In this document: piece after piece, positions 1-5,382 of the stretch | Layout: the number at the start of each line of letters is the position of its first letter | Position numbering within the stretch: position 1 is the stretch's first letter | Assembly (NCBI GenBank): GCA_964605685.1 | Contig: CAZSDX010000010.1 | Location: forward strand, 20,103 to 31,421 | From: an uncultured Polyangiaceae bacterium | GTDB taxonomy: Bacteria > Myxococcota_A > Polyangia > Polyangiales > Polyangiaceae | Length of the DNA: 11,319 bases | Direction of reading: 5' to 3' | The notes under the pieces: model-generated | What the model saw: the letters and a program-made list of their open reading frames with translations, nothing else | What the model was told of the DNA's origin: nothing | Database searches by the model: none | Made by a program: the position numbers and the translations under genes

Positions 1-90
1 CTGCCCGGAGGCCGGGGGGTGAGGTTTCTCCTGCCCGGAGGCCGGGGGGTGAGGTTTCTCCTGCCCGGAGGCCGGGGGGTGAGGTCTCCC
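1..90. repeat. 3 x 30-bp perfect tandem direct repeat (ctgcccggaggccggggggtgaggtttctc), in frame inside the MTase ORF
   Basis: Read directly from the sequence. On the minus strand each unit encodes GETSPPGLRA. Copy 3 differs from copies 1 and 2 at two nucleotides (ttc to ctc, and tcc to ccc), and both changes are synonymous in the minus frame (GAA/GAG Glu, GGA/GGG Gly). The array abuts the window edge, so more copies may exist beyond it. Confidence 0.9.
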
Positions 91-1876
91 CCAACCGCTC
101 CAGAATCGGTCTGAGCGTTTTCTGGACGATGGGCCGCGTGAGCTCCGGCGGCGTGTAGTGGGAGCCGGAGCGGCGGCGCTCCTCGGTGGGCTGGAGGAAG
201 AGGCTGCCGGGGTGGAGGACGTGGGGGGTGCGAGGGGAGAGGCGGCGGTCGAGGGCGGTGAGCAGCTCGGGGACCGTGCGGGCCTTCTTGAGGGCCTCCG
301 CGGGCTTCCCGGAGAGCTCGCAGCGAGCCTTGTCCTTGAGCCATTTGGCGCGCTCGGCGGGCTTCGCGGCGAGGAGCTGGTCGAGATCGATGACGACGTG
401 CTGGGGGGTGACGGCGATGGCCGAGCCCGCGGCGCGCTCGACGGTGAAGCCCATCATGTTCTCGTAGACGGAGCCCAGGTGCTCGACGTCGAGGGTGCGG
501 TAGGAGATGCGCTCGCCGTCGAGGAACATCAGGTTGTCCAGCACCCGCAGCACCACGCCGTCGGAGAGCCGCGGGACGGAGGAGAGGCGCCGGTAGAAGC
601 CCTCGTCCTGCTGCGTGGCCTCACGGACGCGCCCCTCCAGGAAGGTGTACCGCTCGGGGTCGAAGAGGTCGCCGTAGCGGGGGGGCATGTGGAGGGAGAC
701 CTCACCCCCCGGCCCCCTCCCCATCGATGGGGAGGAGAGGCGCTGTTCTGCCTCCCCCCTCCCCATCGATGGGGAGGGGGGCTGGGGGGGTGAGGTTGAC
801 CCATCGACCCCGTGGTGGACCATGCGGAAGAGCGTGAGCAGCCAGGACCAGGCGCCGAAGCGCTGGCCCATGGTGTCGGGGTGAAGCCCCCGATCCGCCC
901 GGAGCCGCTCGTGGAGCGTGGTGAGGGCGTAAGAGCTGCCGTAGAGAGGCCCCTGGGCCGCGACCTCGCGCTCCTCGGCGTAGAGCAGGAAGACCAGGCG
1001 AAGCAGGACCGTGAGGAGGCCGCCATAGATGTCCTCCGGGAGCACCCCGCGGAGGAGCTTGCCCTGGGAAGCCTCGTCCGCCGCGTTGAAGCCCCGGAGC
1101 AGCTCGTAGAGGGCGAGGAGGGCCTGCTCGGAGAGCTGCTCGGAGACCTCGTTCTGGAACTTGCGGGAGGATTCGAGGAGGGGGAGGAGGCGAGAGCGCG
1201 GATCGCCCTGGAAGAGGCGGGCTGGGTCCAGGAGCATGCGCAGGGCAGCGAGGATGGGGCGGCCCGCGGTTTCCAGCATGGGCTGGAGGGGGAAGGTGAG
1301 GTGACCGGAGGCCTCGCCGCGTGGGGCGTAGACCAGGCGCAGGTGGGTTCCGTTGGAGAGGAGGCCGACGGGGATCTGGCGCTCCCGCAGCAGGCGCTCG
1401 AAGCGGATTTGGGGGCTGGTTTTCCAGGCGCGCTCGTGGAGGCCCGGGTGAGGGCGATCGAGGGCGGTGCCGGGGAAGAGGGTCTGGACCAGGAGGAGCC
1501 AGGAACCGGGCTGGTCCGGGTCGGGGACCGCGAAGGTGGGGGTGAGGCGATCCTCGAATTCGGGGAGAACGACGGTCAGCTCGTCGGGGAGGGGAGGGCC
1601 GCCCGGGGCGCCGGCCAGGTCGCCTGGTTCCCAGCCGAGGATTTCCCGGGTGAAGGCCGGGAAGTCGGGGATATGGACGCTGTCGGGGAGATCGCCGTGG
1701 CGATCAGGCTTGAAGGTACGCTCCAGGAAGGCGCGGAGGGCGCGCTGGAGGGGCGCGGCGTTCTCGTCGAGGATGACCTGCGCCGCGAGGAGGGCGGCAG
1801 GGGAGACGACCATGCCGACGGGCTGGACGAAGCCGAGCCATGCTTTGTGCGCTTCGAGGGCGAGATCGCGAGCCAT
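1..1876 (-). CDS. N6-adenine DNA methyltransferase, gamma-class (HsdM/PglX/Eco57I/DrmMI-like); first 625 codons only, 3' end beyond window start
   Basis: ATG is the complement of 1874-1876, sharing one nt with the helicase TGA (1876-1878). I translated the minus strand by hand from that ATG and found no stop down to position 1. The translation reads MARDLALEAHKAWLGFVQPV...RLVFLLYAEEREVAAQGPLY...EHLGSVYENMMGF...SGSHYTPPELTRPIVQ. The LGxxYE and xYTPxxV elements are the helical/motif X signature that precedes the AdoMet-binding motif I in gamma-class amino-MTases; motifs I and IV (DPACGSG, NPPY/F) would lie beyond the window, and motif X plus context alone cannot exclude another AdoMet-dependent function. 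The plus-strand ORFs 158..793 and 812..1903 occupy the same codon phase and have E/G/A/R-rich antisense-type composition, so they are shadows of this gene. Confidence 0.7.
   Translation of the reverse strand, partial: MARDLALEAHKAWLGFVQPVGMVVSPAALLAAQVILDENAAPLQRALRAFLERTFKPDRHGDLPDSVHIPDFPAFTREILGWEPGDLAGAPGGPPLPDELTVVLPEFEDRLTPTFAVPDPDQPGSWLLLVQTLFPGTALDRPHPGLHERAWKTSPQIRFERLLRERQIPVGLLSNGTHLRLVYAPRGEASGHLTFPLQPMLETAGRPILAALRMLLDPARLFQGDPRSRLLPLLESSRKFQNEVSEQLSEQALLALYELLRGFNAADEASQGKLLRGVLPEDIYGGLLTVLLRLVFLLYAEEREVAAQGPLYGSSYALTTLHERLRADRGLHPDTMGQRFGAWSWLLTLFRMVHHGVDGSTSPPQPPSPSMGRGEAEQRLSSPSMGRGPGGEVSLHMPPRYGDLFDPERYTFLEGRVREATQQDEGFYRRLSSVPRLSDGVVLRVLDNLMFLDGERISYRTLDVEHLGSVYENMMGFTVERAAGSAIAVTPQHVVIDLDQLLAAKPAERAKWLKDKARCELSGKPAEALKKARTVPELLTALDRRLSPRTPHVLHPGSLFLQPTEERRRSGSHYTPPELTRPIVQKTLRPILERLGETSPPGLRAGETSPPGLRAGETSPPGLRA
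699..796. repeat. 98-bp MITE-like GC-rich element bounded by 12-bp perfect terminal inverted repeats (ACCTCACCCCCC at 699-710, GGGGGGTGAGGT at 785-796) with two internal perfect palindromes (716-735, 20 bp; 754-781, 28 bp) centred on ATCGAT; lies in frame inside the MTase ORF
   Basis: Seen in the sequence. Palindrome 1 is cctccccatcgatggggagg; palindrome 2 is cccccctccccatcgatggggagggggg. The TIR motif GGGGGGTGAGGT also occurs once per unit in the 30-bp tandem repeat at 1-90. The minus frame stays open across the element and encodes low-complexity GSTSPPQPPSPSMGRGEAEQRLSSPSMGRGPGGEVSLHMPP. Confidence 0.75.
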
Positions 1877-1878
1877 CA
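1874..1878 (-). other. TGATG stop/start overlap between the helicase and MTase genes (translational coupling, same operon)
   Basis: Minus-strand bases at 1878..1874 read T-G-A-T-G. Confidence 0.8.
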
Positions 1879-4800
1879 GGTGAGGGATTCCGGCCAGAGG
1901 TAGACGACGCCAAAGGGTTCGACCCGGGAGGCCCGGGTCTCGTAAGCGGCGGTGATGCGCCTGGGTTCGGACGCGAGCTCGCCGTCCTCGCCGTCGATCT
2001 CGCGAGCGCGGCGCTGCCAGTGATCTTGATCGGCCTTGAGCTGGCGTTTTTCCTCGTCGGAGAACTGGAGCGAGAGCTGCTGCCTGGAGCTGCTGTCGAT
2101 CATGTCCTGGATGCGCTTGCGTTGCGCGAGGAGCAGCCTGCGCATGGCCTCGGATTCCTTTTTCCCGCGGTGCAGGAGGGCGCGCTCGGCCTGCTTTCGC
2201 GCGGCCTCCGCCTGCTTGTGGAGCGCCGGGAGGAGCTGCTCGACGTCGGTGGCGACGGCGGAGGCGAGCAGGCGAGCGACGTCCGAGCCAGGGGTACGGG
2301 CGCCCTCGCGGAGGCCCTCCTCGACGAGGCGCAGCGAGGCGTCCGGGGAGAGGTCGGTGGCGGGTTGAAGGGGTTTTTTGCGCAGGTCGAGGGGCTCCCA
2401 GGGGGCCAGGACCGCGAGGATCTGATCGTGGAGGCGGGCGGCGCGATCTCCGAAGAGAGAGAGGCGGCCCAGGAGGACGACGCGGCGCTGCGGCTCGCGG
2501 GAGACCACGAGGACGGCGCGGGCGAGGTCGTGGTAGACAAAGCCCTGGGCGAGGAAGCGGCCGAGCAAGCGCTGGACGAAGCGGTGCTCCAGGTGCAGGT
2601 GGACGGTGCTGTTGTCGAGGTCGCGGGGGGGATGGAAGGAGACGGAGCGGACCGGGAAGCGAGCGCGCCACTCGGCGAGGGAGACGCCGCGGGGCCGCGG
2701 AGGGCGGAGGGTGTCGAGGGTCTCGACCCAGGAGGCGTCGCCAGCGAGGTGGGCGGCGACGGCGCGGAGATCCCAGCAAACGCGGCCGTCGGGCGAGGTG
2801 GACTCGGCAGGCGCCGGGGCCCCGGCGAGGCGGAGGGAAGCCCGGAGCGCGGCCTGGAGCGCCCCTTCATCGAGGTGCAAGTAGTCCCTGGATCGGGCGA
2901 GGATCTTCTCCAGCGCTTGCAGGTCTTCGTTGATCTGCTCGGCCCGACGTCGATCCAGCTCCTCGTCCCATTTCTCCTGGATCCTGGCGTTGTGCTCGGC
3001 CTGGTCGAGGCGGTGGGCGAGCTGGTCCCGCTCCCGGTGTCGGATGCCTCCATCGAGGAGGGAGGCCAGGCGAGCCTCGATGACCTTGCCCTGGCTGCCG
3101 AGTTCTTCCTGGATGGTGAGGGAGCGGCGGACCAGGACCTTGAGGACGTGGTCCTCGGGGCGCTGGAGGAAGACGAAGTAGTAACAGTGGACGACGGGAG
3201 CGCGCTGGAGCTTGCGGTCGATACGGCCGTTGCGCTGCTCCATGCGGGAGGGGTTCCAGGGGATGTCGAAGTGAAAGAGGTCGGCGCAGTGGTTCTGGAA
3301 GTTGACGCCCTCGCGGGCCGCGTCGGTGGCGATGAGGATGCGGAGCGGCGCGGAGCGAGGATCCTGGTTGAAGGCGTGCTTGATCTCCTCGCGGGTGTCC
3401 TCGTCGAGGCCGCCGTGGAAGGTGCGGATGCGGTCCTCGACGTCGCCCAGGCCAGCGAAGGCCTCGGAGAGCTTGCGGAGCAGGTAATCCTTGGTGGTCG
3501 CGTACTCGGTGAAGAGGAGGACGCGGCGGTGACCCCAGCGCTTCCCTTCGTCGAGGAGGTGCTCCCGGATCCAGCGGAGGAGGAACTGGACCCGCGGGTC
3601 CGGGAGGTGGCGTGCGTGCTCGGCGACGCGGGCCATCTCGTCGAGGAGCTGGAGCTCCTCCGGGGGGATGGCGCCGACCTCGGCCATGCGGGTTGCTACC
3701 TCGATCTGGGACTCCTCCTCGCGGCGTAGCTGGTCCTCGGAGAGCTGCCCCTCGTCGTCGTCCGCGTCGGGGGCATCGACCAGGAGGCGGAGGCGCTCGG
3801 GGGCGATGGCCAGCTCCCGGTTGGCCTTCTTGATGCGGGAGTTCTTGTGGATCGCGAGGGTCGAGGCGAAGGCGTCGATGCTGGAGAGCAGGCGCTTCTG
3901 GAGGCCGATGACGGTGAGGACCGCCGCGGCCTGGGCCTTCTTGGTGGCGGCTGCGGTATTTTTTTCGCGGAGCTCCCGGTACCGATCCAGGAGCCGGGAG
4001 AGGACCAGCTCGGGGGCGTCGTCCGGGAGGTGATCGATGTCGATCTGGTGAGGCTTGCGCTCGGGGAAGCCGCCCGCGACGCGGGCGATGTCCCGCTTGA
4101 GCCTGCGGACGATGACCTCTTCGAGGGCCTCCTTGTCCTTCTTGCTCTTGACCGGGACGCCGCGGGTAAACCGCTGGGGGTCGAGGATCTCGAGGAGCGC
4201 GGCGAAGCTGTTGGAGTGCCCGTTGTGCGGGGTGGCCGAGAGGAAGAGGCGATGCTCGAAGCGGGGGGCGAGGTCGCGAACGATGCGGGTGAAGCGGGAG
4301 TCGATGGCGTAGCTTCCGCCGCTGGAGGGGGCGGCGTTGTGGGCCTCGTCGAGGATGAGGAGGGTGCCGTGGGGATCCTCGTCGAGCCAGGAGCGGAGGG
4401 GTCCGGCGTACTCCTCGTCGCGAAGGCGTGCGTGGGAGATGATGAAGCGGTTGTGGGTGGTCCAGGGGTTGACGTTGTACCCACGCTCCTTGCGCCGCTC
4501 GATGATGAAGGCGCGGTCGTGGACGACGAAGGAGAGCCCGAAACGTTCGTCGAGCTCGTCGCGCCACTGAAGCTCGACGGAGGGAGGGCAGGCGACGACG
4601 ATCCGGCGTACCTTCTGGCGCTGGATCATCTCGCGGAGGATGAGGCCCGCCTCGATGGTCTTGCCGAGGCCCACGTCGTCGGCGATGAACAGGTTGACGC
4701 GGGGGAGCTGGAGGGCGCGGCGCAGCGGCTCGAGCTGGTAGGTAGTGACCTGGATACCGGCGCGGTAAGGGGCCTGAAAGAGCTCGGCGTCGGTGGAGGT

Positions 4801-5091
4801 GACGCAGTTCCAGCGGCGAGCGTGGAGGTAGGCAGCGAAGACAGAGGGCTCATCGAAGCCGCGGCGCGCGACCTCTTTCCAGGAAGAACCCCGGAGGACT
4901 TCTGCATCGACCTCGACCTCCCAGAGCACATCCAGGGGAGCGCCCTGGGCGTCGTCATCGAGGCAAGAAAGAGACACCTGGGTCCAGGGATGCGGAGCCC
5001 CGCCCAGCACCCTCTCGACGAGGTAATTTCGAGCTCGAACCCGGACGATGTCCCCTTTTTTGAGGCCGTCGTTTTCCGTGGGAGTATCCAT
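1876..5091 (-). CDS. SNF2-family (DEAH-box, SF2) helicase/ATPase with long C-terminal extension; candidate DISARM class 1 DrmD-like
   Basis: Listed ORF 1876..5247. SF2/SNF2 motifs appear in order: I DDVGLGKT, II LLILDEAH, III FLSATPHNG, IV LLFTEYATT, V ILIATDAAREGVNF, VI QRNGRIDRKLQ. I prefer the internal ATG at 5089-5091 (MDTPTENDGLKKGDIVRVRARNYLVE...) as the start, because the 52 upstream codons from the GTG at 5247 are P/S/G/A-rich and not protein-like. The start is still uncertain between 5091 and 5247. The stop TGA overlaps the MTase ATG. Confidence 0.85.
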   Translation of the reverse strand: MDTPTENDGLKKGDIVRVRARNYLVERVLGGAPHPWTQVSLSCLDDDAQGAPLDVLWEVEVDAEVLRGSSWKEVARRGFDEPSVFAAYLHARRWNCVTSTDAELFQAPYRAGIQVTTYQLEPLRRALQLPRVNLFIADDVGLGKTIEAGLILREMIQRQKVRRIVVACPPSVELQWRDELDERFGLSFVVHDRAFIIERRKERGYNVNPWTTHNRFIISHARLRDEEYAGPLRSWLDEDPHGTLLILDEAHNAAPSSGGSYAIDSRFTRIVRDLAPRFEHRLFLSATPHNGHSNSFAALLEILDPQRFTRGVPVKSKKDKEALEEVIVRRLKRDIARVAGGFPERKPHQIDIDHLPDDAPELVLSRLLDRYRELREKNTAAATKKAQAAAVLTVIGLQKRLLSSIDAFASTLAIHKNSRIKKANRELAIAPERLRLLVDAPDADDDEGQLSEDQLRREEESQIEVATRMAEVGAIPPEELQLLDEMARVAEHARHLPDPRVQFLLRWIREHLLDEGKRWGHRRVLLFTEYATTKDYLLRKLSEAFAGLGDVEDRIRTFHGGLDEDTREEIKHAFNQDPRSAPLRILIATDAAREGVNFQNHCADLFHFDIPWNPSRMEQRNGRIDRKLQRAPVVHCYYFVFLQRPEDHVLKVLVRRSLTIQEELGSQGKVIEARLASLLDGGIRHRERDQLAHRLDQAEHNARIQEKWDEELDRRRAEQINEDLQALEKILARSRDYLHLDEGALQAALRASLRLAGAPAPAESTSPDGRVCWDLRAVAAHLAGDASWVETLDTLRPPRPRGVSLAEWRARFPVRSVSFHPPRDLDNSTVHLHLEHRFVQRLLGRFLAQGFVYHDLARAVLVVSREPQRRVVLLGRLSLFGDRAARLHDQILAVLAPWEPLDLRKKPLQPATDLSPDASLRLVEEGLREGARTPGSDVARLLASAVATDVEQLLPALHKQAEAARKQAERALLHRGKKESEAMRRLLLAQRKRIQDMIDSSSRQQLSLQFSDEEKRQLKADQDHWQRRAREIDGEDGELASEPRRITAAYETRASRVEPFGVVYLWPESLT

Positions 5092-5108
5092 CCGTTGTAC
5101 GAAGGTGA

Positions 5109-5129
5109 GGGAGGGATTGGGAGGGAGGG
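5109..5129 (+). other. Canonical G-quadruplex motif G3-A-G3-ATT-G3-A-G3-A-G3 (five G3 tracts, loops of 1-3 nt) 18-38 nt upstream of the helicase start; the mRNA 5' leader carries the C-rich complement
   Basis: gggagggattgggagggaggg read directly from the sequence. Confidence 0.5.
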
Positions 5130-5231
5130 CCTCGATGTCACGACATGAGACAAGGGCGAAGGATCCTCCGAGAGCGAGCCCGACGCAAGGAGATCCAACC
5201 TGTGCGGAGGGGCCTTGCGCCCAGGTTCGAC

Positions 5232-5276
5232 GGGGGAGAGACCTCACGCTCCCCCCTCGATGGCTGGGGAGGGGGA
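5232..5276. repeat. Degenerate third copy of the same palindromic element family (gggggagagACCTCACgctCCCCCC-TCGATGGctgGGGAGGGGG) in the helicase/vault-protein intergenic region
   Basis: It shares the GAGACCTCAC plus C-tract arm and the CCCC..TCGATGG..GGGGAGGGGG hairpin core with the element at 699-796. gggggag (5232-5238) and ctccccc (5249-5255) form a 7-bp stem. Confidence 0.55.
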
Positions 5277-5365
5277 CGAGCGTGTTGGGCGCCGCAGCGA
5301 CACGGGGGACGTCAGGGAGCGCGCGGGGCGGCGGTCGGTGCTAGCGTTCCGGCCTCGGACCACCC

Positions 5366-5373
5366 AAGGAGGG
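5366..5373 (+). promoter_or_regulatory. Shine-Dalgarno AAGGAGGG, with 9-nt spacer (5374-5382), upstream of the vault protein ATG at 5383
   Basis: aaggaggg ccaccgtcg ATG, read from the sequence. Confidence 0.7.
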
Positions 5374-5382
5374 CCACCGTCG

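Follow-up and report, generated by a model that had tools for sequence, protein, structure and literature searches.

Which system a pair of coupled genes belongs to is not self-evident when only the first gene and part of the second can be read, and this is the question raised by the stretch of DNA that we analysed, 11,319 nucleotides of an uncultured Polyangiaceae bacterium (GenBank assembly GCA_964605685.1, contig CAZSDX010000010.1, positions 20,103 to 31,421; hereafter the window). On its minus strand lies a SNF2-type helicase gene followed by the beginning of a methyltransferase gene that runs off the window at position 1. An initial annotation, made from the sequence without database searches, had taken this pair for a class 1 DISARM-like defence module and had given for such systems the gene order drmD, drmMI, then drmA, drmB and drmC. 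Our results bear out this proposal: it is likely that positions 1-5091 of the minus strand are the promoter-proximal portion of an anti-phage operon of the class 1 DISARM type, in which drmD is coupled to drmMI and in which drmA, drmB and drmC most likely lie just past position 1.

Judged by its sequence, the helicase is the DrmD protein of class 1 DISARM. The NCBIfam equivalog model DISARM_DrmD (NF038317) gives the 1071-residue protein 1027 bits against a cutoff of 610 and aligns residues 11-1069 with positions 3-1020 of its 1021. The best PADLOC model for the helicase is likewise DrmD (PDLC02621; E 5.6e-304, 1009 bits), aligned at profile positions 9-1036 of 1040 with residues 58-1121 in the numbering of a longer, 1123-residue reading frame that is discussed below. 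The SNF2 DEAH-box helicase of 1071 to 1123 residues that had been called initially is also supported by its domains, SNF2-rel_dom and Helicase_C in Pfam, and by a complete set of helicase motifs, in which motif III (SATP) and motif V (TDAAREG) accompany motifs I, II and VI (Table 1); all five do not vary among 35 homologues. Proteins 53-54% identical to it carry the NCBI and UniRef name "DISARM system SNF2-like helicase DrmD", and the closest DrmD outside the organism's own population is only 56% identical. A further PADLOC model, PDLC02572, matches the window DrmD over its full length (E 1e-172, profile positions 15-1037 of 1043) and is labelled "DrmA"; this label is at odds with the type of protein and calls for caution with automated assignments.

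The initial annotation had also credited the helicase with a C-terminal extension of 480 residues and of unknown function. About 445 residues follow Helicase_C in the 1123-residue numbering, and because both DrmD profiles span this region, it is a standard feature of the family and not an extra part; the same coverage rules out a novel fusion. An AlphaFold2 model of DrmD based on 35 homologues (mean predicted local distance difference test score, pLDDT, 80.6; predicted template modelling score, pTM, 0.74) has Escherichia coli RapA, a Swi2/Snf2 ATPase associated with RNA polymerase, as its best Foldseek match (PDB 6bog, chain A; 1150 columns, E 1e-26), at a template modelling score of about 0.5 and 16% identity. 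This structural match extends over the whole chain, taking in the beta domains at the N-terminus and what follows the ATPase core, and the match of the DrmD sequence profile to RapA is restricted to the ATPase core. As for setting, DrmD is located in a defence operon and has no known link to RNA polymerase.

The second open reading frame is, on the same kind of evidence, the N-terminal part of DrmMI, with a predicted N6-adenine methyltransferase activity. The PADLOC model for DrmMI (PDLC02640) matches the fragment with an E value of 2e-162 and 540 bits in two stretches, residues 1-356 and 389-598, compared with 140 bits for type IIG models. DrmMI and type IIG models are the only PADLOC matches of the fragment, and no PglX model is listed among them. 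For the MmeI-type nuclease domain that is fused N-terminally to the methyltransferase in type IIG/IIL restriction-modification enzymes, the Pfam model MmeI_N reaches 19.4 bits, under its cutoff of 27, and aligns only in its second half. Up to the sequence RPILERLGE (residue 597), the fragment shares 50-53% identity with the N-termini of six full-length relatives of 1288-1352 residues; beyond this point the six relatives go on to motif I DPAMGSGAFLVE, then to motif IV NPPF and to a target-recognition domain. The full-length relatives carry the Pfam domains Eco57I, MmeI_Mtase, MmeI_TRD, MmeI_N and N6_Mtase. Within the fragment, the sequence SGSHYTPPELTRPIV, which we take to be motif X of gamma-class N6-methyltransferases, is nearly invariant in the relatives, where motif I comes next.

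Reading frames need care in this DNA, since at a G+C content of 70% for the whole window long spurious open reading frames are frequent. Codon-position GC supports the two minus-strand frames (GC3 0.89-0.90, GC2 0.43-0.48), and the long plus-strand open reading frames over this region, which show the antisense pattern, were rejected as genes. The minus-strand frame at 1876-5247 was confirmed and would encode 1123 residues if started at GTG. The DrmD family profiles align only from residue 58 of this frame, and the gene call on an independent JGI contig (L001) is an identical protein of 1071 residues with an ATG start; the start of drmD is thus most likely the ATG at 5091, and the GTG at 5247 is disfavoured. 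The TGATG overlap that had been noted between the two genes is present at 1878-1874, where the TGA stop of drmD (1878-1876) and the ATG of the next frame (1876-1874) have one base in common. Downstream of it, 625 codons are open before the frame leaves the window. A promoter scan upstream of drmD found no sigma-70-type site, a result that is uninformative for a myxobacterium.

Table 1. Features of the drmD-drmMI locus, in window coordinates
Feature	Position	Strand	Description
drmD	1876..5091	-	SNF2-like (RapA-like) DEAH ATPase/translocase, 1071 residues, predicted from NF038317, PDLC02621 and Pfam
Possible 5' extension of drmD	5092..5247	-	52 codons from GTG 5247; probably untranslated; GTG within a palindromic repeat-like motif
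DrmD motif I	4657..4671	-	Walker A, GLGKT; invariant in 35 DrmD homologues
DrmD motif II	4339..4350	-	DEAH box; invariant in the alignment of 35 homologues
DrmD motif VI	3214..3237	-	QRNGRIDR, arginine finger; invariant in the alignment of 35 homologues
DrmD C-terminal region	1876..3171	-	Residues 641-1071, with long helices plus a beta domain; conserved among DrmD proteins
TGATG junction	1874..1878	-	drmD stop overlaps drmMI start; translational coupling
drmMI, 5' part	1..1876	-	N-terminal 597 residues of class 1 DISARM methyltransferase and 28 residues of repeat
Methyltransferase motif X (presumed)	125..169	-	SGSHYTPPELTRPIV (SGSHYTPPELT); sole methyltransferase motif within the window
Palindromic repeat element	698..796		99 nt; inverted repeat; in frame in drmMI, 33 codons, no stop
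Three tandem 30-nt units	1..90		Share the ACCTCACCCCCCGGCC module with the element; in frame, GETSPPGLRA three times
Intergenic region upstream of drmD, up to the divergent vault-like gene	5092..5382		Expected operon promoter; short related palindromic motif at about 5232-5275

What would follow the pair can be read in its relatives. We compared 160 related loci whose DrmMI proteins are 43-53% identical to the fragment. DrmD lies upstream of DrmMI in every one of the 122 loci with enough upstream sequence, and it ends at most 300 nt from the DrmMI start in 112 of these. Of the 88 loci whose sequence extends for 7 kb or more past DrmMI, 74 have DrmA downstream. Among complete DISARM loci the best match is L002, in which the genes after DrmMI score above the NCBIfam cutoffs for DrmA (1196 vs 950), DrmB (578 vs 240) and DrmC (NF038319; 188 vs 133), carry the domains Helicase_C, MZB/DUF1998 and PLDc_2, and match DrmA, DrmB and DrmC in PADLOC. 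Wherever a helicase is visible downstream in a related locus, tblastn matches it to the DrmA of L002, and usually a separate DrmB match comes next; the splitting of DrmA and DrmB into two open reading frames was checked in four loci, and DrmC in L002. The order that had been proposed at the outset is therefore that of the relatives as well as that of class 1 DISARM as described, drmD-drmMI-drmA-drmB-drmC, for example in Serratia sp. SCBI (Ofir et al. 2018 as cited in bioRxiv 10.1101/2021.12.28.474362; PMC9142583). The window locus resembles this system in its DrmD and DrmMI families, in the order drmD then drmMI and in their tight coupling, and relatives about 50% identical carry the full five-gene set. 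It differs in that only the first 1.6 genes are visible, in the in-frame palindromic elements of drmMI, and in that no drmMII was seen.

In Serratia, DrmMI N6-methylates adenine in a non-palindromic motif and so marks host DNA, and the helicase complex of DrmA with DrmB loads on 5'-overhang DNA ends and has an ATPase that is stimulated by unmethylated DNA. The phospholipase D (PLD) protein DrmC is dispensable there, and deletion of drmD and drmMI weakens protection against some phages and almost abolishes it against Nami (bioRxiv 10.1101/2021.12.28.474362; PMC9142583). In the operon proposed here, DrmD would be a RapA-like translocase on double-stranded DNA that cooperates with DrmMI as a conserved two-gene module; from the relatives we infer that the genes of this module are always adjacent and usually overlap. 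The module may either help the methyltransferase to scan DNA or report unmodified sites to DrmAB. The core genes drmA, drmB and drmC might be separated from drmMI by an embedded extra defence gene.

Within drmMI, the DrmMI sequence is interrupted by members of a GC-rich and presumably dispersed family of palindromic elements with the modules ACCTCACCCCCCGGCC and CCCCATCGATGGGG; a short related motif lies upstream of drmD (Table 1). The 99-nt element has a hairpin free energy of -52.9 kcal/mol (z -8.5) and adds about 33 residues to DrmMI that are absent from all six aligned relatives. It is found at the same site in three other assemblies, two of which (L163 and L164) end inside it, while the third (L162, JGI 3300044993 Ga0484945_082532) diverges just after it. 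These breaks indicate that the insertion is real in several samples and that it is repetitive enough to stop assemblers. At its edge the window ends in some 85-90 nt of a perfect tandem repeat with a 30-nt unit, which are not DrmMI sequence, and this repeat begins where the relatives proceed towards motif I. A third in-frame copy, at 1240-1345 of L162, lies further along a DrmMI coding sequence, and all three intragenic copies are in the same reading frame (T-S-P-P) without stops. The inverted tail of L162 encodes AFGLVATNTIAQGDTRSTGLRWICNHGGVIYDATRRVKWPGRAAVIVSVVHVGK, which shares 55-78% identity with DrmMI residues ~872-946 of five relatives among the six and 47% with those of the sixth, from Chondromyces apiculatus (L010), with E values down to 3e-23; thus the C-terminal half of a DrmMI exists in the population and is also element-bearing. 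Six other contigs of the same population (from JGI, Logan and ENA) are 88-100% identical over the shared drmD-drmMI stretch. Scans of genome and metagenome contigs with the methyltransferase fragment retrieved only relatives of at most 53% identity, and a protein database search with it gave one near-identical match (P0001), on a 1.5-kb contig. Exact look-ups of DrmD, of three members of its cluster and of the vault-like protein led only to contigs that break off in the first 1.2 kb of drmMI, and for the penicillin-binding protein of the window there was no record. The palindromic elements of Rickettsia are reportedly in-frame selfish repeats in protein-coding genes. The elements described here are similar in being palindromes of about 100 nt that sit in frame and stop-free in an otherwise conserved gene, whereas the organism and the element sequence are different and several copies occur in one defence gene.

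Several observations weigh against the view that this locus is the start of a complete class 1 DISARM operon. For this organism drmA, drmB and drmC were not seen, and all six other contigs of its population stop in the first 1.2 kb of drmMI. The catalytic motifs I and IV of the methyltransferase fall beyond position 1, so the earlier label of a gamma-class adenine methyltransferase holds through homology to full-length relatives (with Eco57I, N6_Mtase and MmeI_Mtase domains) and not through the motifs in the window, where the non-catalytic N-terminal part and motif X are found. The biochemical role of DrmD was left open in published work (PMC9142583), and its cooperation with DrmMI is accordingly one that we infer. 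Moreover, 14 of the 88 informative relatives have no DrmA within about 7.7 kb of DrmMI. One of them, in the cultured myxobacterium C. apiculatus DSM 436 (L010; Myxococcota; NZ_ASRX01000010.1, 6689-13846), has an intact DrmD of 1095 residues and a DrmMI of 1288 residues immediately ahead of housekeeping genes (encoding a TetR regulator, acyl-CoA dehydrogenases and a cytochrome c peroxidase), with no DrmA, DrmB or DrmC by tblastn across the 21.6-kb locus and no downstream PADLOC match. A genuine DrmD-DrmMI-only arrangement thus exists in a myxobacterium, and the window pair could in principle be such a stand-alone module, either an autonomous SNF2 and methyltransferase system or what is left after loss of the core genes. 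We consider this unlikely given how many informative relatives do have DrmA. Inserts of up to 6.2 kb are common, so that many of the "missing" DrmA genes, in the thirteen further loci, may lie behind longer inserts; in L076, which with L010 makes up the two loci examined among the 14, an ATPase and DarT-DarG come after DrmMI, so that embedded defence genes are present there. The window DrmD is also no closer to that of C. apiculatus (51%) than to those of complete systems (50-52%). The state of drmMI itself is a last point of concern: at least two, and probably three, elements are inserted in it, and L162 fuses its codons 1 to ~388, via a palindromic element, to the reverse complement of DrmMI residues ~872-946 (L162 1343-1530). 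If these insertions or an inversion had inactivated drmMI, the locus would be a decaying or switched-off, non-functional remnant, which seems quite improbable to us. The insertions all keep the same stop-free frame, and comparison of strains gives drmD a ratio of nonsynonymous to synonymous substitution rates (dN/dS) of 0.12-0.20 and the N-terminal part of drmMI one of 0.07-0.19, the latter between strains up to 11% divergent in DNA. In a codon alignment with strain L166, whose DrmD protein is 90% identical, drmD has a dN/dS of 0.116, with 0.09 for the first 640 residues and 0.15 for the C-terminal 430. Values of 0.07-0.20 in both genes indicate purifying selection and so argue against a decaying remnant. 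The junction in L162 reflects either a genuine inversion between inverted copies of the element or a chimera that arose in assembly, on a short contig, via a shared palindromic arm of 41 nt. One could imagine the elements as recombination sites at which an inversion flips the catalytic segment of about 1.7 kb, as in the L162 junction, and the DISARM methyltransferase as phase-variable in the population, an idea to which we give little credence.

Two other systems combine a helicase and a methyltransferase of these kinds. ARMADA joins the SNF2 helicase ArmA and the PglX-like methyltransferase ArmB to a fused YprA-type helicase-nuclease, ArmC; it has, like class 1 DISARM, a BrxHII/RapA-like helicase and a PglX-like methyltransferase, and in type II (armA-armB-armC-armD, E. 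coli) the RapA-like SNF2 helicase and then the PglX-like adenine methyltransferase come first, as they do here (bioRxiv 10.1101/2025.09.15.676423; PMC13463889). PADLOC v2, moreover, is older than ARMADA. The window DrmD nevertheless lies above the cutoff of the DISARM_DrmD equivalog, and the genes that follow in the two systems are unlike: ARMADA continues with the fused YprA/DUF1998 helicase-nuclease and, in type II, with the GajB-like helicase ArmD, whereas in the relatives of our locus DrmA and DrmB are split and the PLD protein DrmC is present as well; their visible downstream helicases match the DrmA of L002. We therefore hold ARMADA to be very improbable, an exclusion that is indirect, drawn from the DrmD cutoff and from the genes of the relatives. 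More remote still is a fragment of BREX type 3, the more distant alternative of the initial annotation, in which a BrxHII helicase stands beside a PglX methyltransferase. Here too an SNF2-type helicase is paired with an Eco57I/MmeI-like N6-adenine methyltransferase, a description that fits DrmMI and PglX alike, and the PADLOC BrxHII models do match the helicase core (E 7e-66). They do so with 221 bits against the 1009 of DrmD, however, and the NCBIfam PglX models find no match in the fragment and only 43 bits in a full-length relative, where the cutoff is 500. For BREX type 3 the initial annotation had given the opposite gene order, and the window contains no PglZ, BrxC, BrxA or BrxL, the upstream neighbours being vault-like, DUF481, penicillin-binding transpeptidase and family 2 glycosyltransferase genes. 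This alternative is not supported, and class 1 DISARM is the assignment that we retain.

The comparison of DISARM relatives also brought to light additional genes around the core operon. In 55 of 101 loci, the interval between drmMI and drmA contains 1.2-6.2 kb of extra genes. These include a GmrSD-type type IV restriction enzyme in 16 loci, an AAA_21/AAA_15 ATPase with a DUF3226 partner (PADLOC PDC-M38 / AbiL-like), OLD/TOPRIM and UvrD-like proteins, a DarG macro domain, and Abi_C and AbiJ domains. The drmMI-drmA junction thus looks like a hotspot of embedded defence genes. In L002, a protein with a CHAT domain (caspase-like protease) is encoded right after drmC (20111-21514) and has no PADLOC match.

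On the other side of drmD, the divergent gene at 5383-8103 (+) encodes a vault-like protein of 906 residues with MVP repeat and shoulder domains in Pfam. Proteins 55-78% identical to it occur widely across Myxococcota (Polyangiales, Labilithrix, Nannocystis, Sandaracinaceae and Bradymonadia), which assigns the organism to this phylum. As a candidate DISARM component it was rejected, for tblastn found no match to it in any of the 160 related loci. Contigs of sister lineages whose vault-like genes are 81-86% identical have no DISARM genes alongside; together with the distance to the nearest outside DrmD, this marks the DISARM genes as lineage-specific accessory DNA. The remaining genes of the window encode a DUF481 protein (about 8100-9197, -), a penicillin-binding transpeptidase (9160-10194, -) and a family 2 glycosyltransferase (10368-11081, +). 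No differences separate the window from the JGI contig L001 between 1201 and about 9500; past that point the two differ by about 8% (145 mismatches in 1.8 kb, in the transpeptidase and glycosyltransferase genes), which indicates a strain mosaic or a recombination boundary.

Our findings place the locus within a family that is already described and has curated models, and of which thousands of DrmD homologues exist. It is an ordinary member of the known class 1 DISARM family, and its sole unusual feature is the set of in-frame palindromic repeats in drmMI, which also stop assembly. For annotation, the lesson is that equivalog models together with synteny in relatives allow a confident assignment of a two-gene fragment at a contig end. 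For the biology of these systems, a defence methyltransferase gene is seen to tolerate several in-frame palindromic elements, which explains why assemblies break there, and about half of the related systems have embedded defence genes at the junction between drmMI and drmA. Finally, the C. apiculatus pair without DrmABC offers a cultured setting in which the poorly understood DrmD-DrmMI module could be studied alone.

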